A stretch of 56,676 bases of DNA from positions 67,042-123,717 of the forward strand of contig JBBDXP010000007.1 in NCBI GenBank assembly GCA_040902285.1, read 5' to 3'. Both the position numbers and the translations under genes were made by a program. The stretch is from Candidatus Spechtbacterales bacterium (GTDB taxonomy: Bacteria; Patescibacteriota; Minisyncoccia; Spechtbacterales; 2-12-FULL-38-22). The notes under the pieces were generated by a model. The model saw only the letters and a list, made by a program, of their open reading frames with translations, was not told the DNA's origin and made no database searches. Of this stretch, positions 1,406-52,441 are shown piece by piece; position 1 is the stretch's first letter; each line of letters begins with the position of its first letter.

Positions 1406-1521
1406 CCCGTTAGTGGCAGGTCGCGGCCTATTTGCAAGCCGTTTCCTGCGATTTTATTTTTATAACAATTTGTCTGAATGCCCGTTAATAATACTATGCC
1501 GTGACCGCGGCCACTAACGGG
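1406..1521 (-). repeat. CCCGTTAG...CTAACGGG start-codon-abutting element, subfamily C
   Basis: Terminal inverted repeat catcccgttagtggc / gccactaacgggatg; abuts the ATG at 1405. Confidence 0.85.
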
Positions 1522-5253: not shown

Positions 5254-5365
5254 CCCGTTAGTAATTACTGCTTGCGCAGTTTTAATTTATGTATATTTAA
5301 ACAAATTAACTACTTGTATTTGTTGCACTTGGTTTAGTGAACCCGTTAGGGTAATTACTAACGGG
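5254..5365 (-). repeat. CCCGTTAG...CTAACGGG start-codon-abutting element, subfamily A
   Basis: 15-bp TIR cccgttagtaattac / gtaattactaacggg; abuts ATG 5253; near-identical to copies at 23569 and 42950. Confidence 0.9.
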
Positions 5366-21073: not shown

Positions 21074-21243
21074 TATGATTTTTTAAAAATAAAATTATAT
21101 AAAAAATAAGCAAGCCCCGCAAAATATAAAACTTTCGCAAGAATCCAAAACCCAAATCCCAAAGAATTGCCCAAAAGAGGCAATGAAAAAAGCATTACGA
21201 GCCCCGCCGTTAAAAATATGATTTCGTTCGTTTTAAGTTTCAT
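21073..21243 (-). CDS. Small membrane protein (56 aa), not in the ORF track
   Basis: Manual translation MKLKTNEIIFLTAGLVMLFSLPLLGNSLGFGFWILAKVLYFAGLAYFLYNFIFKKS*; two hydrophobic segments; TAATG overlap with the next gene. Confidence 0.7.
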   Translation of the reverse strand: MKLKTNEIIFLTAGLVMLFSLPLLGNSLGFGFWILAKVLYFAGLAYFLYNFIFKKS

Positions 21244-21356
21244 CCCGTTAGTAATTGCTGCTATGCAGTTCTATCGCAATAAAATGCTACAGCGGTAATT
21301 ATTATGAATTTTGGTATTGTTTAAACGGATGACCCGTTAGGGTTATTACTAACGGG
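21244..21356 (-). repeat. CCCGTTAG...CTAACGGG element, divergent subfamily A
   Basis: Same ends and internal gacccgttaggg; abuts ATG 21243; supplies the polA TAG stop (21349-21351). Confidence 0.88.
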
Positions 21357-23568
21357 ATTCATCCGATTTTAAATTTCCCCAATTGTCCCCCACTTTGCAG
21401 TCCACCTTAAGAGGTACCGATAAGCTTGCGGCATTTTCCAAAATATCTTTGGCTTTGGAAATATTCTCTTTTATTTTATCATCAGGCCCTTCCCATAACA
21501 ATTCATCGTGTATTTGCAGTAAAAGATCCACGCCACGCAGTTCTTTGTCAGCTTTCACCATTGCCATTTTAACGATATCCGCGGCCGTGCCCTGCACCGG
21601 CATATTTATTGCGGCGCGTTCGGCCATTGCTCTTAGCATGGGGTTTGGGGAACTAAGATCGCTGATAAACCTTTTTCTGCCGAAAAGCGTTTCAACGTAT
21701 CCCAGCTCATGGGCCCTTCGTTTAGTTTCTTCCATGTAACGCGCTATGTTTTGAAAAATCTCCATATACCTTTGTATGAATTTTTTGGCCTCGTCAAAAC
21801 TTATTTCCGCTGATTCGGAAAACGCCTTGGGCCCTATTCCATATATAATTCCAAAATTGAGGGCTTTAGCCCTATATCTCATTTTTGGAGTAACATCTTT
21901 TTCTTTTATACCGAAAACCAGGGCGGCCGTATGCGCATGCACGTCCTCATCGCGGCGAAATACATCTATCATGTTTTTATCTTGCGCCAGATGCGCAATC
22001 ACGCGCAATTCCATCTGAGAATAATCGCACGCCATAAACTTTTTACCTTCTTCGGGAATAAAACTGCTCCTTATGTCTTCGGCGAATTCCCCTCTTATGG
22101 GAATATTTTGTAAATTAGGATCCTTGCTTGATATTCTTCCGGTGGAAGCTCCGAGAGAATTAAAAACGGTATGAATTCTGCTATTTTCGTCTGCCAATTT
22201 GGGGAGAGGCACCACATAGGTAGAAAGCAATTTTTGTATTTCTCTTTGTTCGAATATCAGGTCTACTATCGGGTGTTGTCCCCGCAATTTTTCCAGCTCG
22301 CTCGCGGCAATGGATATTTTTTTACCCGGGGTCTTTCTAAGACCCTTGGGGTCTATTTTTAATCTTTCAAACAAAATATCCGAAAGTTGTTGCGATGAAT
22401 TAATGTTGAATTTAATGCCCGCTTTTTTGTATATTTTTCTTTCTATGTCTTGAAGTTTCTTTTTGAGTTTTTTACTCAAGGCGGATAATTTGTCTTTATC
22501 TATTTTTATTCCTTTTTGTTCCATTTTTAAAAGCACGGGAATAAGTTCCTTTTCCAAATTATATATTTCATCGGATAATATTCCCGCTTCACGCGCACTA
22601 TCGACCTCGCGCAATATATCTTTTTCCCGGGATAACCCGTTAGACGCGCTGTCGGGCTCTATACTCTTAAAACCTTCCAGCTCATTTAATCCGGATAAAA
22701 GCCGGTTAAATTCAAGTTCTTGAAACAATTGGCGCGCCTTTTCAGGATCAAATCCTCCCCATTCAGCATCGCTAAGCTTAAAGTTAAGCTTTACATCCCT
22801 GCGAATAGTAGCCAGCATTCTTGAAAAAAGCGCCTGCTCTTTGTTCTCTTTTAAAATTATCCAAATGCGCTCACTTATAATATCGGGTTTCTCAACTTCG
22901 ACGGAGCGATACATATCATCCAGGTTCCCGTATTTTTTCAAAAGCACGGCCGCGGTTTTTTCTCCTACCCCCGGAACCCCCACTATATTGTCTGAGGGGT
23001 CTCCGCGGAGACCCTTGTAATCAACCATTTGCTCCGGCCTTAAACCAAAACGCGCTTTTACAGCTTCCTCATTATACAACACGGTATCCTGGACGCTCTT
23101 TTTCATCGTATAAACCCTGGTATGCGCGCTTACAAGCTGCAGGGTGTCCAGGTCTCCACTTGCTATGATTATTTTTATGTCCTCCTTTTTCTGTTCCACC
23201 AATTTCGACACAGTGCCTATTATATCATCGGCTTCGAAACCCTGTTTTTCATATACAGGTACATTAAACGCCGTCAGTACCTCTTTTATGCGGGGAATTT
23301 GCTCATACAGTTCATCGGGCGCTTTTTGTCGGGTTGCTTTATAATCTTCGTATTCCTCGTCTCTGAATGTGGGACCCTCAACATCAAAAGCGGCCGCAAC
23401 GTACGCGGGTTTTAATTCTTTCAGAGCTTTAATCAATATCGAAGAAAAACCGTAAACGGCGTTGGTAAGTTCTCCCTTTTTCGTTTTAAAGCGCGGCAGG
23501 GCATGGTATGCGCGATGAAAAATCGAATTAGCATCTATAAGTAAAAATATTTTTTCGCTATTATTCAT
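21349..23568 (-). CDS. polA: DNA polymerase I (5'-3' exonuclease plus polymerase; 3'-5' exonuclease domain absent)
   Basis: LIDANSIFHRAYHA, GDPSDNIVGVPGVGEKTA, PNLQNIP, DYSQMELR, QIHDEL; 739 aa. Confidence 0.95.
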   Translation of the reverse strand: MNNSEKIFLLIDANSIFHRAYHALPRFKTKKGELTNAVYGFSSILIKALKELKPAYVAAAFDVEGPTFRDEEYEDYKATRQKAPDELYEQIPRIKEVLTAFNVPVYEKQGFEADDIIGTVSKLVEQKKEDIKIIIASGDLDTLQLVSAHTRVYTMKKSVQDTVLYNEEAVKARFGLRPEQMVDYKGLRGDPSDNIVGVPGVGEKTAAVLLKKYGNLDDMYRSVEVEKPDIISERIWIILKENKEQALFSRMLATIRRDVKLNFKLSDAEWGGFDPEKARQLFQELEFNRLLSGLNELEGFKSIEPDSASNGLSREKDILREVDSAREAGILSDEIYNLEKELIPVLLKMEQKGIKIDKDKLSALSKKLKKKLQDIERKIYKKAGIKFNINSSQQLSDILFERLKIDPKGLRKTPGKKISIAASELEKLRGQHPIVDLIFEQREIQKLLSTYVVPLPKLADENSRIHTVFNSLGASTGRISSKDPNLQNIPIRGEFAEDIRSSFIPEEGKKFMACDYSQMELRVIAHLAQDKNMIDVFRRDEDVHAHTAALVFGIKEKDVTPKMRYRAKALNFGIIYGIGPKAFSESAEISFDEAKKFIQRYMEIFQNIARYMEETKRRAHELGYVETLFGRKRFISDLSSPNPMLRAMAERAAINMPVQGTAADIVKMAMVKADKELRGVDLLLQIHDELLWEGPDDKIKENISKAKDILENAASLSVPLKVDCKVGDNWGNLKSDESR

Positions 23569-23680
23569 CCCGTTAGTAATTACTGCTTGCGCAGTTTTAA
23601 TTTATGTATATTTAAACGAATTAACTATTTATATTTATTGCACTTGGTTTAGCAGACCCGTCAGGGTGATTACTAACGGG
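23569..23680 (-). repeat. CCCGTTAG...CTAACGGG element, subfamily A
   Basis: Abuts polA ATG 23568; flanked on the minus strand by ATGAAT on both sides. Confidence 0.9.
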
Positions 23681-23685
23681 ATTCA

Positions 23686-24168
23686 TTACTTTACCGTTAT
23701 TTCCCTAGTGTTTTCTCCTGTTTCTTTTATGCTCACCCGGATAGTATTTTGGGGCAAAATATCTTCTATTTTTTCCGCCCATTCCACAAGTATTATATTT
23801 CCGGGATCGGATACAACATCCTCCCACCCGATATCCTGTATCTCTTTGCTTGAATTTACCCTGTAACAATCCAGATGATAAAATTTCCTGATTTTCTTTT
23901 CAAAAACCCTATCGCGCACATCATATTTTTTCATCAACACAAATGTAGGGCTCGTAATCTTTCTGCCTATTTGCAAAAATTCCGCCACACCTTGCGCGAA
24001 TCTTGTTTTACCGGCCCCCAATTCTCCATTCAACGCAATAGTAATGGAGGTATTCCTGTTTTTTTTTGCCGCATTTTCTAATATTGCCCGGGCTATTAGT
24101 TTGGTTTCTGCCTCCGAAGATGAAATCAAACGGATGTCTCCGGTGCTTAACCTTTGTTCTTTTGACAT
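23686..24168 (-). CDS. tsaE: tRNA threonylcarbamoyladenosine biosynthesis ATPase
   Basis: LNGELGAGKT, ITSPTFVL, YHLDCYR, LVEWAE. Confidence 0.95.
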   Translation of the reverse strand: MSKEQRLSTGDIRLISSSEAETKLIARAILENAAKKNRNTSITIALNGELGAGKTRFAQGVAEFLQIGRKITSPTFVLMKKYDVRDRVFEKKIRKFYHLDCYRVNSSKEIQDIGWEDVVSDPGNIILVEWAEKIEDILPQNTIRVSIKETGENTREITVK

Positions 24169-28866: not shown

Positions 28867-29359
28867 AAAAATTATACTGGGCATAGATCCCGGCACAGCA
28901 ACAATGGGATACGGCATAATAAAAAAAACCGGATCCGATATAAAATGTCTGAGCTATGGAACATTAACCACCGACGCGGGGATTCCCGAACACATACGGC
29001 TTAAAAATCTTTACGCTGGCATTAACAAACTATTGAAAAAACACAAACCGGATATAATAGCGGTTGAAAACATATTCTACTTCAAAAATCAAAAAACGGT
29101 AATCCATGTGAGTCAGGCCAGAGGCGTGGCTCTTCTTATAGCTGCTCAGAGGGCTAAAGAATATTTCTCATTCACTCCTTTGCAAATAAAACAAGCCGTA
29201 ACAGGATATGGGCGAGCAGATAAAAAACAGGTGCAAACCATGGTAAAAACCCTGCTACGCCTAGACGAAGTGCCAAAACCGGATGATGCCGCCGACGCTC
29301 TGGCCGTGGCTATATGCTGCGCCAATTCTTTGAACGTATTGCAAATTTTAAAAAAATAG
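28853..29359 (+). CDS. ruvC: Holliday junction resolvase
   Basis: ILGIDPG, QARGVA, TPLQIKQAVTGYGRADK, PDDAADALAVA; start ATG 28853. Confidence 0.95.
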   Translation: MRNTEKIILGIDPGTATMGYGIIKKTGSDIKCLSYGTLTTDAGIPEHIRLKNLYAGINKLLKKHKPDIIAVENIFYFKNQKTVIHVSQARGVALLIAAQRAKEYFSFTPLQIKQAVTGYGRADKKQVQTMVKTLLRLDEVPKPDDAADALAVAICCANSLNVLQILKK

Positions 29360-29370
29360 TATAGGAGTCA

Positions 29371-29709
29371 GGAGTGTGAAATAAGAACAGAATCAACTTT
29401 AGAAGCAAAAGAATGAACCGGATGCGATGAATGATGACGAAGGAGTAGTTTTAACTACTTTGAGGAGGAATGAAGAAGCAGACGGTTTATTCTTTTGCTT
29501 CCCGCATGGCGGGCGAATATTGAACATATTCTTCGTTTGAACGCTACGCGTTATGCCTGCGACGCTCGGAAAAGAAAGCTTGCTTTCTTTTCACTCGCTA
29601 TCCTCGGCATCCCGTCGCTCACGCACAGGCAGTGCGTTTCGACACCTGGGGCCTTGTGGCTAAAAAATATACGCTCCGCTAAATTGATTCTGTTCGTATC
29701 TCACACTCC
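29371..29709. mobile_element. 339-bp composite palindromic element with a nested ~100-bp hairpin (29402-29501)
   Basis: Outer IR ggagtgtga..aagaacagaatcaa / ttgattctgttcgtatctcacactcc; inner IR gaagcaaaagaatgaaccg / cggtttattcttttgcttc. Confidence 0.7.
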
Positions 29710-29721
29710 CCAAATAATCAT

Positions 29722-30339
29722 ATGAACCACGAAAACATCAATATTATCGAGGGTAAATCCCCCATACTGATATCGGCGCCGCACGCAGTGCCCATAAGAA
29801 AAAATGTAGAAGGCAGGATTTACACGCGGAAAGCGGAAAAAAGAGTAAGCGAAATAGTGGATGTTTTAACGCGAAATACGGGCGCCTGGGGAATACATAC
29901 GGTTTCAAGAGGAACTCTAGAGGGCTGGAGGCAGGAAATATACGGGATATATAAAAAAAATGTTAAGAACATAGTAAAATTAAGCGGAGTAAACCTTGTA
30001 ATAGATATACACGCGGCAAAAAGCGGGCGGCCTTTTTATGTAGATTATGATTTTGTGCTCCCAAACAAGCACCCGCACGATAGCATGGTTGAAGAAATAT
30101 TTTGCCACCACTACCTGCAATACTTTCCTTCACATAAATTGAGTAGAGGATATTTTAGAGAAGAAAAAGGTTCGGGAAAGAACACTCTTACTTTTTATGT
30201 AAGAAATTATCTTAAGATTCCCGCTTTGCAAATAGAGATAAATAAAGCCCTAAAACAAGATGAGGCGGGTTTCCGTGATATATTAAAAATGCTATATTCG
30301 TTTATGAAAGATTATGAAAATACTATTACTCGGGTTTAG
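29722..30339 (+). CDS. Zn-dependent amidohydrolase/carboxypeptidase-fold protein (N-formylglutamate amidohydrolase-like)
   Basis: ILISAPH...E, VIDIH, PALQIEIN motifs. Confidence 0.6.
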   Translation: MNHENINIIEGKSPILISAPHAVPIRKNVEGRIYTRKAEKRVSEIVDVLTRNTGAWGIHTVSRGTLEGWRQEIYGIYKKNVKNIVKLSGVNLVIDIHAAKSGRPFYVDYDFVLPNKHPHDSMVEEIFCHHYLQYFPSHKLSRGYFREEKGSGKNTLTFYVRNYLKIPALQIEINKALKQDEAGFRDILKMLYSFMKDYENTITRV

Positions 30340-40768: not shown

Positions 40769-40882
40769 CCCGTTAGAAGTCGCGATCGCAACAGATGGGA
40801 CAAGTAATTTAAAACAATAATAATTCAAATAAATAATTAAGAGTTGCGGGTTGTGGCTTAATCGCGATCTGTTTCTAACGGG
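40769..40882 (+). repeat. CCCGTTAG...CTAACGGG element, subfamily B
   Basis: Abuts ATG 40883; preceded by ATGAAT; homologous to 52328-52441. Confidence 0.9.
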
Positions 40883-42949: not shown

Positions 42950-43061
42950 CCCGTTAGTAATTACTGCTTACGCAGTTTTAATTTATATGTATTTAACTAA
43001 ATCAACTACCTATATTTACTGTACTTAGCTTAGCAGACCCGTTAGGGTAATTACTAACGGG
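42950..43061 (-). repeat. CCCGTTAG...CTAACGGG element, subfamily A
   Basis: Abuts ATG 42949; homologous to copies at 5254 and 23569. Confidence 0.9.
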
Positions 43062-52327: not shown

Positions 52328-52441
52328 CCCGTTAGAAGCAGATTGCGATTAAACCACAACCTGCAGTTCTTAATTATTTATTTGAATTATTATTGTTTTA
52401 AATTACTCATCCCGTATATTGCGATCGCGACTTCTAACGGG
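52328..52441 (-). repeat. CCCGTTAG...CTAACGGG element, subfamily B
   Basis: Abuts ATG 52327; homologous to 40769-40882. Confidence 0.9.

Follow-up and report, generated by a model that had tools for sequence, protein, structure and literature searches.

The 112-nt non-coding hairpin that lies between tsaE and polA in the genome of a Candidatus Spechtbacterales bacterium is probably a MITE-like (non-autonomous) member of a family of hairpin-ended mobile elements of Patescibacteria, full-length relatives of which carry a nuclease gene. This reading draws on comparisons of the element's copies, of their flanks and of the corresponding gene junctions in other genomes. All positions refer to a 56,676-nt stretch of contig JBBDXP010000007.1 (hereafter the window), the features of which are listed in Table 1.

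The hairpin between tsaE and polA

Read on the minus strand, the hairpin is bracketed by two ATGAAT hexamers, the sequence and coordinates of which proved to be as given in the initial annotation, and the tsaE stop codon (TAA at 23688-23686, following AAG) overlaps the left one. Excising the element and one repeat in silico yields the junction ...AAG TAATGAAT AAT..., i.e., the TAATG overlap between tsaE and polA that the annotation had reconstructed. The predicted DNA fold of this copy has an energy of -17.7 kcal/mol with its termini paired, and its predicted RNA fold has a z-score of -2.92.

We also considered the hairpin as a promoter cassette, an idea that was dropped because promoter-like sites were not in excess over shuffled sequences between positions 21100 and 23800 (6 sites vs. 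6.4 +/- 3.2), with none convincing inside the focal copy. A terminator scan of the same interval gave one weak terminator-like hairpin (23582-23595), located on the strand opposite to the genes.

Table 1. Positions of the focal hairpin, its neighbouring genes and the other copies in the window.
Feature	Position	Strand	Description
Focal hairpin element, 112 nt, non-coding	23569..23680	minus	12-nt perfect terminal inverted repeats CCCGTTAGTAAT / ATTACTAACGGG
Left ATGAAT	23681..23686	minus	old start codon 23686-23684; left TGAA 23685-23682; element's closing T 23681
Right ATGAAT	23563..23568	minus	element's closing A 23568; right TGAA 23567-23564; working polA start codon
uORF, 21 codons plus stop	23621..23686	minus	MNPVSNHPDGSAKPSAININS, then stop; old start through hairpin 5' arm
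tsaE, upstream gene	23686..24168	minus	Pfam TsaE PF02367, 4e-35
polA, downstream gene, 739-aa ORF	21349..23568	minus	Pfam 5_3_exonuc_N, 5_3_exonuc, DNA_pol_A
Copy, 113 nt	21244..21356	minus	flanks ATGAAT/ATGAAA; before 56-aa ORF; polA stop is the TAG inside this copy's CCCGTTAG
Copy, subfamily C, 116 nt	1406..1521	minus	flanks ATGCAT/ATGAAA
Copy, 112 nt	5254..5365	minus	flanks ATGATT/ATGGAT; before RNaseH_like gene
Copy, subfamily B, 114 nt	40769..40882	plus	flanks ATGAAT/ATGAAG; before Polysacc_synt gene
Copy, 112 nt	42950..43061	minus	flanks ATGAAT/ATGAAA; upstream stop TAG 1 nt before left ATG
Copy, subfamily B, 114 nt	52328..52441	minus	flanks ATAAGT/ATGAGG; left ATG decayed

Copies, target duplications and element-free junctions

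We found 25 hairpin-ended copies in this 0.62-Mb genome, seven of them in the window. The flank pairs reported earlier for the six copies other than the focal one were all correct on re-reading, as was the statement that the copy at 52328 has no upstream ATG. Matches to the terminal 12-mer with up to two mismatches number 14 in the window as compared with 4.9 +/- 2.1 in shuffles, none of 100 of which reached 14. Terminal pairing extends over at least 11 of the 14 end positions in all 25 genomic copies; 20 have a perfect 5-nt flanking direct repeat, and 23 have flanks of the form ATGNN(T)/ATGNN. Nearly all of these ATG-type copies (21/23) adjoin an ORF of at least 56 aa, and the element always points the same way with respect to the flanking ATG and ORF. 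Such strict orientation despite symmetrical ends is not accounted for by a simple cut-and-paste model. Recent activity is indicated by a pair of copies that are 100% identical although their loci are unrelated. One copy (C1:32841) occupies an ATG within a gene, 15 nt ahead of the stop codon, and another follows a tRNA, so ATG appears to be recognised as a sequence and not as a start.

Were ATGAAT part of the element, it should be invariant regardless of the downstream codon, and it is not: in 19 of 23 ATG-type copies, bases 4-5 of the left repeat match their counterparts at the downstream codon. These include six of the seven copies whose gene start is not ATGAA (ATGCG, ATGGA, ATGAG three times, and ATAAG/ATGAG), and the pairs ATGCG/ATGCG, ATGGA/ATGGA and ATGAG/ATGAG are all present in the genome. 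ATGAG-flanked and ATGAA-flanked copies are 98.2% identical, and flank variants form no clade in the element tree; given this and the fact that both flanks follow the target, we rejected a tyrosine recombinase with arms and a 6-bp spacer at the circle junction.

Judging from these flanks, we take the repeat to be a target duplication. Its length differs from the six nucleotides originally proposed: the duplication is real but comprises 4 nt (TGAA), or 5 with the adjoining A, while the invariant T in sixth position is contributed by the element and pairs with the base just beyond the other end (the A of the rebuilt ATG). We then pooled 138 hairpins from many genomes and compared their flanks both in register and slid by 1-3 nt. 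A perfect 4-nt in-register repeat beside a complementary closing pair was found in 87 of the 138, as against 2, 0 and 1 for the slid flanks. The closing pair was T..A in 80 hairpins and C..G in 49; copies of the latter kind rebuild the start as GTG (e.g., ATGAAC/GTGAAA), which rules out a 5-nt duplication there. The pooled hairpins thus fit an element Y-CCCGTTAG...CTAACGGG-R (here T...A) with a 4-bp duplication, mostly of TGAA.

That insertion duplicates or re-creates the start codon, as the initial annotation had suggested, is supported by these target-following flanks together with element-free junctions in relatives. Specifically, an element before polA was found in 0 of 13 relatives searched, and 9 of 12 TsaE-PolA junctions overlap or lie within 10 nt, including one TAATG and one ATGA overlap; the relatives come from other genera only, with 58-73% PolA identity. 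No empty allele was found within the species. A metagenome scan with TsaE for close strains gave a best match of 49% identity, and in three DNA runs of one study that cover the stretch the contigs stop at the elements, none joining across an empty site; no RNA runs covering the stretch are listed.

Nuclease-carrying relatives and a candidate insertion mechanism

The same ends also enclose a gene. Among the 30 loci in the same class closest to the G016 nuclease, 25 have a GIY-YIG ORF of about 90 aa between these ends. In these full-length relatives (as distinct from the window copy), a bounded ORF of 95 aa, within the size expected of Ssn nucleases (about 90-100 aa), consists of a single GIY-YIG domain (PF01541, residues 10-80, E = 1.7e-18). 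An intact left ATG is in frame with the nuclease in 11 of the bounded loci. The ORF runs into the right repeat in 22 of the 25, where it terminates as ...LTG and its TGA stop overlaps the rebuilt start; the right flank then carries an ORF of at least 137 aa in 19 of the 25. As the nuclease ORF typically uses the host's old ATG as its start codon and its stop overlaps the rebuilt one, it would be translated from the host's initiation site.

The uORF that follows the old start of polA shares an M(N/S)PV beginning with the N-terminus of these nuclease ORFs. In the subfamily C copy it stays open across the entire element, and its TGA overlaps the gene's ATG. The annotation had regarded this short MNPV... 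uORF as left in the old coupled position; it is indeed present there, but coupling alone does not explain it. Given that the frame of the nuclease ORF frequently coincides with that of the left ATG, and that its TGA overlaps the rebuilt start, the uORF is most plausibly a remnant, namely the N-terminal stretch of the nuclease reading frame carried by full-length relatives.

One alternative is a conventional MITE that descends from a classical DDE insertion sequence and is mobilised by it, in which case some copies would carry the GIY-YIG gene as a passenger. The textbook signature of a MITE is indeed seen (terminal inverted repeats, a 4-bp target duplication, small size and many copies), and so are empty orthologous sites (in other genera) and a longer coding element that has these ends. 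What that longer element encodes is a nuclease rather than any known transposase. Across 41 genomes, CCCCGTTAGAR ends pair almost only at 20-130 nt (by eye, in the 149 matches listed of 149 + 115), with no IS-like end spacing among the matches listed. Furthermore, in 25 of the 30 loci no ORF other than the nuclease lies between the ends; the right repeat supplies the nuclease's last codons, and its reading frame is coupled to the flanking ATG, which argues for an integrated design and against a passenger. We therefore consider this alternative unlikely.

The nearest solved structure to the CPR nuclease is UPF0213 BH0048 (1zg2, 2.1e-5), with Slx1 as a weak second; NCBIfam gave only a sub-threshold match to a group-I-intron endonuclease. 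The assembly of this genome (95% complete) contains no full-length element with these ends, and its own two small GIY-YIG genes (C4:6165-6359 and C6:2442-2630) were rejected as partners, as they are not motif-bounded. A close homologue of the bounded nuclease is likewise absent from several MITE-rich relatives (G003, G028 and G024). The inner terminal repeat differs between window copies (TAATTAC) and full-length elements (AGAGAT), and cross-mobilisation is therefore assumed. We know of no GIY-YIG enzyme that acts as a transposase with a 4-bp duplication.

Under the mobile-element reading, the focal copy would have inserted into a TAATGAA junction, in which the tsaE stop overlapped the polA start, with duplication of the 4-bp TGAA. 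The left TGAA would retain the tsaE stop and the old ATG, and the right TGAA, together with the element's last base A, would rebuild the polA ATG. In full-length relatives the single gene, encoding the single-domain nuclease, would typically run from the host's old ATG (MNPVRD...) to ...LTG and its stop, with ribosomes passed on to the host gene via the ATGA overlap; the window copies would have lost the nuclease ORF, leaving the 21-codon uORF as its stump. The transposition chemistry we infer from the same comparisons: the nuclease, acting in trans, may recognise the folded termini and, at T(G/T/A)RA sites, either introduce a break with a 4-nt stagger or take advantage of one. Insertions would survive mainly at ATGA/TAATG junctions, as these are the only places in this genome, about 91% of which is coding, where neither stop nor start is lost.

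Opinion could fall evenly on either side of a broader proposal, namely that these elements represent an undescribed minimal selfish class, consisting of inverted ends and one ~90-aa GIY-YIG nuclease as the sole protein, and transposing into start codons with target duplications. The ORF would be fused to the host initiation site and hand back through ATGA, without a promoter or ribosome-binding site of its own, and the class would have given rise to hundreds of gene-less hairpins, located at start codons and -35 boxes in Patescibacteria and perhaps also in Omnitrophota and Planctomycetota. Should a GIY-YIG nuclease be all that moves such elements, this would be a new transposition chemistry and also a natural case of a parasite borrowing a host gene's start codon. 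For annotation, the ATG ahead of a hairpin would be a scar, and short MNPV... ORFs should not be taken for genes. The 25 copies also explain much of the non-coding DNA between the tightly coupled genes of this ultra-small genome.

Host leaders, other repeats and known systems

A second alternative is a host-evolved translational leader, in which decoy start, uORF and hairpin control polA and other genes and have spread by selection and not by transposition. The element always lies at a start codon in a fixed orientation, and the uORF crosses the 5' arm of a stem in which the first two bases of the real AUG are paired, both of which speak for such a role. Against it, the genes behind the copies are unrelated according to Pfam (polA, RNaseH-like, polysaccharide exporter, pilin-like and unknowns), the same junction is without the element in the 13 relatives, and element interiors are not conserved between genomes. 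The left ATG has decayed in several copies (ATAAGT and ATTCAT in this genome, ACGAAT four times in relative G023). Stem mismatches are without strand bias (G:T 104 vs. A:C 99), i.e., there is no sign of strand-specific RNA selection, and Rfam at gathering thresholds matched nothing in the window and only a tRNA in four other element-bearing loci. The conserved leader, confined to one gene family and kept across relatives, that characterises a leader-peptide attenuator is not what we observe. We regard such an origin as very unlikely, and a secondary effect of the element on translation as possible.

Spread of a REP/REPIN-type palindrome by a domesticated IS200-like Y1 (RAYT) transposase is the most improbable explanation: hairpins of only 26-80 nt do occur, the ends keep their sequence throughout the whole class, and 20 of 41 relatives, this genome among them, have Y1_Tnp genes, but these genes are not associated with the element pattern (6 of 11 genomes with it vs. 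14 of 30 without), are absent from G023 (13 copies) and G002 (8 copies), and Y1 transposition, as in IS200/IS605, leaves no target duplication, unlike the 87 of 138 hairpins in which one is present.

Turning from these alternatives to described repeats, Rickettsia palindromic elements (RPEs) and mycobacterial MIRUs are small repeats that are tolerated within genes or between them, since reading frames or stop/start overlaps are preserved. The former are in-frame insertions in genes, the latter are direct-repeat units that lack hairpin ends, and to our knowledge neither is linked to a GIY-YIG gene. The Correia elements of Neisseria duplicate TA and are not known to derive from a nuclease-coding partner. 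They resemble the present element, as do other bacterial MITEs that are co-transcribed with genes, in being small foldback sequences with terminal inverted repeats, target duplications and many gene-adjacent copies, and in having no transposase gene (PMC3184786, accessible text); insertion exactly into start codons with the ATG rebuilt is not described in that text. Neisseria REP2 and Borrelia IR repeats are similarly placed directly upstream of ORFs and bring an ATG initiation codon, but they have their own promoter and ribosome-binding site, and the accessible text describes neither hairpin ends nor duplications for them (PMC3184786), whereas the ATG here is rebuilt from the target.

Our literature search found no paper describing this family of start-codon hairpin elements. 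The accessible portions of PMC12455944 and PMC11270868 mention GIY-YIG genes in CPR without this architecture. The closest known system appears to be that of the Ssn nucleases with their NTS hairpins. According to the accessible text of Chenal et al. 2025 (PMC11893778), Ssn is a single-domain GIY-YIG nuclease of ~94 aa bracketed by NTS/SRM hairpin repeats, of which there are many orphan copies, and SsnA binds the single-stranded (ssDNA) form of the hairpin and cleaves within the variable flank, a few nucleotides away. In the CPR family, inverted ends flank the GIY-YIG gene and orphan copies are abundant. UPF0213 is a small GIY-YIG group different from the Ssn clade (cd10448). The terms Patescibacteria, start codon and target site duplication are absent from the accessible text of PMC11893778. 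Small hairpin-specific nucleases may serve as ssDNA tools, as is proposed there for Ssn. Whereas an NTS is a local hairpin of ~28 nt on each side (ATTCCC[N8]GGGAAT), the two ends of the CPR element pair together, and unlike Ssn/NTS as presented in that text, the CPR element duplicates 4 bp, is placed at start codons and has its ORF joined to the host's start (PMC11893778). Chenal et al. themselves remark on the IS-like architecture of Ssn/NTS, and, if a GIY-YIG nuclease alone moves the CPR elements, the clear insertion footprints described here would make their hypothesis that Ssn/NTS are IS-like elements testable (PMC11893778, accessible text).

The tsaE–polA junction

The initial annotation had proposed that an ATGAAT direct repeat surrounds the element upstream of polA, and that removing the element would restore a coupled stop and start. 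Reading back the minus strand bore this out: deletion of the 112-nt segment together with one ATGAAT yields TAATGAAT, which contains a TAATG stop/start overlap, and the six further flank pairs reported at other copies were all as stated. The polA product carries 5'-3' exonuclease and DNA_pol_A domains (Pfam). Within the window, the terminal 12-mer (at most 2 mismatches) occurs 14 times, against 4.9 ± 2.1 in shuffled sequence (0 of 100 shuffles reached 14).

Features of the tsaE–polA junction (window coordinates)
Feature	Position	Strand	Description
tsaE	ORF 23686..24168	minus	Pfam TsaE 4e-35; 3' end ...AAG TAA
Left ATGAAT	23686-23681	minus	overlapped by the tsaE stop
Element	23680-23569	minus	112 nt; starts CCCGTTAGTAAT, finishes ATTACTAACGGG
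Right ATGAAT	23568-23563	minus	opens the 739-aa polA ORF

To assess the reconstructed empty site, we compared 13 relatives within the family and order, with PolA N-termini 58-73% identical. Neither terminal 8-mer was found within 300 nt upstream of polA in any of the 13. A TsaE-like gene lies directly upstream of polA in 12, its stop separated from the polA ATG by -17, 91, 200, 5, -4, 209, 10, -14, 2, -14, 6 and -1 nt; thus 9 of 12 junctions overlap or leave a gap of at most 10 nt, including one TAATG and one ATGA overlap. These element-free, mostly tight junctions match the reconstruction. A metagenome scan for a closer strain gave a best match of only 49% identity, and public contigs from three runs break at the elements, none bridging an empty site.

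At its other end, the polA frame today stops at a TAG that lies in the next copy of the element, within its CCCGTTAG (...S D E S R *; window 21349-21356, minus strand). With that copy and one repeat removed, polA would end ...TCG GAT GAA ACT TAA, overlapping the downstream 56-aa ORF by 11 nt. Two more upstream genes (contig positions C13:3997 and C14:18267) end in CCCGTTAG like polA. Elsewhere in the window, the 370-nt intergenic stretch at 29356-29725 is a different multi-copy repeat, matching C9:44747-45009, C13:9180-9446, C13:16580-16796 and C12:20276-20415 at 77-94% identity; depth rises there and public contigs break. Two neighbouring short hairpins between ORFs at 440-498, TAAAATATAACTCACGGGTATGAGTTAT and AAAAATACGACTCATGCTTATGAGTCGT, are possibly terminators.

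Element family and target duplication

Across the source genome (623,642 bp, 15 contigs), a search for both terminal 8-mers gave 19 exact pairs, and 25 copies plus one broken by a contig end when one mismatch per 8-mer was allowed (at least 11 of 14 end positions paired). Flanks of the form left ATGNN-T and right ATGNN surround 23 of the 25, and in 20 of 25 the 5-nt direct repeats are perfect. In 21 of the 23 ATGNN-flanked copies the right-hand ATG is itself the first codon of an ORF (56-739 aa), and the element always has a single orientation relative to that ATG and its ORF. The upstream stop is often on the target (TGA within the left ATGA in 3 cases, TAATG in the focal one), and in 3 cases, polA included, the upstream frame now stops at a TAG or TAA of the element's CCCGTTAG. 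Several subfamilies (112-116 nt) differ in their interiors and have common ends; end stems show matched changes in both arms (TAATTAC/GTAATTA, TAGTTAC/GTAACTA, TGGC/GCCA, TGAC/GTCA), and 100% identical copies occur at two unrelated loci.

Were ATGAAT element sequence, it should be invariant regardless of the downstream codon. Instead it varies, left positions 4-5 equalling the gene's second-codon positions in 19 of 23 copies and in 6 of the 7 with non-ATGAA genes (ATGCG/ATGCG, ATGGA/ATGGA, three ATGAG pairs, ATAAG/ATGAG). Among 17 family-A copies placed on a tree, those with ATGAG flanks each stand beside ATGAA-flanked ones (98.2% identity) and are not grouped; the target, not the element, is therefore the source of the flank. 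By contrast, the left sixth base is T in 23 of 23 copies whatever the right-hand sixth base, and is therefore element sequence.

We extended this to a pool of 138 hairpins from the source and other genomes, a few of which are internal sub-hairpins and not separate insertions. The bases just outside the ends are complementary (T..A in 80, C..G in 49), and the next four form a perfect direct repeat in 87 (one mismatch in 19); sliding the right flank by 1, 2 or 3 nt left 2, 0 and 1 perfect repeats. Start-codon copies of the C..G type read ATGAAC/GTGAAA, the start being rebuilt as GTG, so the base preceding the repeat is not duplicated. The best description is therefore Y-CCCGTTAG...CTAACGGG-R flanked by a duplication of 4 bp, most often TGAA (42, strands merged), followed by TTGA (11), TAAA (11), TGGA (9) and TGAG (7). 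The right flank is ATG (67) or GTG (11) in 78 of the 103 elements that can be oriented by their duplication. The duplication thus re-creates the start codon, as proposed, while covering 4 nt and not the whole of ATGAAT. At four loci of one genome (G023; L066, L069, L072, L073) the left start-codon copy is ACG, which may reflect decay or selection against a decoy start.

ATG is targeted as a sequence, not as a function. A short copy at C1:32841 (61 nt, TGCG duplication) sits at an ATG inside a gene, 15 nt short of the stop, and one further copy follows a tRNA gene. Two short hairpins (48 and 26 nt) are flanked by GTTGAC/GTTGAC and GTTCAC/GTTCAC; the former keeps a TTGACA -35-like hexamer intact, and many C..G copies of other genomes likewise lie on TTGAC. 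The genome is about 91% coding (crude ORF call). Survival, beyond targeting alone, probably concentrates copies at ATGA/TAATG junctions, because a TGAA duplication there would preserve both stop and start.

The pattern CCCGTTAG-N90-110-CTAACGGG was found in 11 of 41 same-class genomes, the reversed-pattern control giving zero in all 41. Of the 41, 25 contain the end motif CCCCGTTAGAR (maximum 77 in one); in the 149 matches listed, judged by eye, its partners are almost always 20-130 nt apart. Scanning 185,579 species genomes returned at least 80 loci; those listed comprise 49 Patescibacteria-named, 23 from other phyla (including Omnitrophota and Planctomycetota) and 8 without a lineage name, and ends pair at 11 or more of 16 positions in all 82 matches listed. 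Some non-CPR matches, e.g., Collinsella, resemble pieces of larger palindromes and may have no relation to the family. On a Wolfebacteria contig (L113, NVSU01000006.1), two ATGAAT-flanked elements lie 143 nt apart with ATGAATCCCG after the first, a hint that insertions were stacked or nested. At two loci with similar flanks (CTTGC / GTGAA), L002 (G016:C16:6644-6751) and L010 (G033:C1:140460-140568), CCCGTTAG/CTAACGGG ends surround an apparently complete tRNA gene; the ends are thus able to bracket a functional gene.

A probable GIY-YIG coding partner

Small GIY-YIG frames are multi-copy in the class genomes (PF01541 in 40 of 41), and the motif bounded 2 among the first 14 examined. In genome G016, two copies of ATGAGT enclose 278 nt beginning CCCGTTAGAGAT, with a 95-codon frame running from the left ATG (MSPVRDPNLMYCTYVIES...) to ...KRFLSLTG, whose TGA overlaps the right ATG. 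This protein had matches in 191 of 301 class genomes (E <= 1e-12), and 25 of the best 30 loci have the same ends around the ORF (at most 1 mismatch each). These 25 elements measure 268-283 nt, mostly 278 or 275, lengths that hold the left ATG, ORF and terminal TGA in one frame. The left ATG is intact and in frame in 11 (three others have a decayed but in-frame ATG), ...LTG* terminates on the right repeat in 22, and 19 have an ORF of 137 aa or more following at the right flank.

Window copies and full-length elements share flank type, closing base, terminal 8 nt and first codons M-N/S-P-V. The short MNPV... frame noted at the old coupled position of the focal copy (MNPVSNHPDGSAKPSAININS) is thus better explained as a stump of the nuclease frame. 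The 116-nt copy at 1406-1521 keeps the frame open up to a TGA that overlaps the gene's ATG. Other small GIY-YIG genes lie beside or inside tRNA genes (G000:C4:6165-6359 in the source genome; L211, L216, L218, L220), the tRNA 5' part being repeated either side of the nuclease gene, which suggests a sister element family targeting tRNA genes.

Mechanism, alternatives and known systems

Overall, the initial observation stands and its interpretation is supported, with corrections to duplication length, the T and the uORF. Anatomy, duplications, copy number, identical copies, absence from the relatives' orthologous site and related coding elements sharing these ends were all observed. As a mechanism, we propose that the GIY-YIG nuclease, in trans, would recognise the paired ends and bring about insertion, staggered by 4 nt, at T(G/T/A)RA sites. 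Expression of the full-length element would begin at the start codon of the host, with ribosomes passed on through the ATGA overlap, and gene-less copies would be tolerated since neither stop nor start is lost. SD-like motifs precede only 85 of 644 ORFs (crude count), so parting a start from its old upstream region may matter little. In the predicted RNA fold, A and U of the working AUG pair with the end of the left repeat; speculatively, uORF translation through the 5' arm could free it. Arguing against mobilisation by the nuclease are the absence of a bounded nuclease gene from the source assembly, several hairpin-rich relatives without a close nuclease homologue, and inner repeats unlike between window copies and full-length elements. 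Fixed orientation despite symmetrical ends is unexplained by this reading and also counts against it.

The copies might instead be MITEs of a DDE-type transposase, which we consider unlikely: no end pairs at IS length were seen among the matches listed, and in 25 of the best 30 nuclease loci the nuclease is the only enclosed ORF and is integrated with the ends. It is quite improbable that a leader evolved in the host, given that the genes downstream of copies are unrelated, the element is missing at the relatives' polA junction, stem mismatches lack strand bias (G:T 104 vs A:C 99), left ATGs have decayed and Rfam gave no match. A REP/RAYT system is scarcely plausible, as target duplications are present and Y1_Tnp occurs in 6 of 11 pattern-bearing genomes vs 14 of 30 that lack the pattern.

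The nearest solved structure to the CPR nuclease is UPF0213 BH0048 (1zg2, E 2.1e-5), with Slx1 weaker. Full-text literature searches on the motif, start-codon MITEs in CPR and GIY-YIG with Patescibacteria found no description, and the accessible text of two papers names GIY-YIG genes in CPR only in passing (PMC12455944, PMC11270868); the start-codon placement of such elements is thus undescribed in the searchable literature. The closest published system found is Ssn/NTS, whose paper mentions in its text neither Patescibacteria, start codons nor target duplications (PMC11893778). There, a 94-aa single-domain GIY-YIG nuclease lies between hairpin repeats that also occur as hundreds of orphan copies, it cleaves ssDNA a few nt from the hairpin, and the authors remark on the IS-like layout (PMC11893778). 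The element at polA is best regarded as a hairpin MITE, akin to Ssn/NTS in having a putative partner nuclease of the GIY-YIG type.
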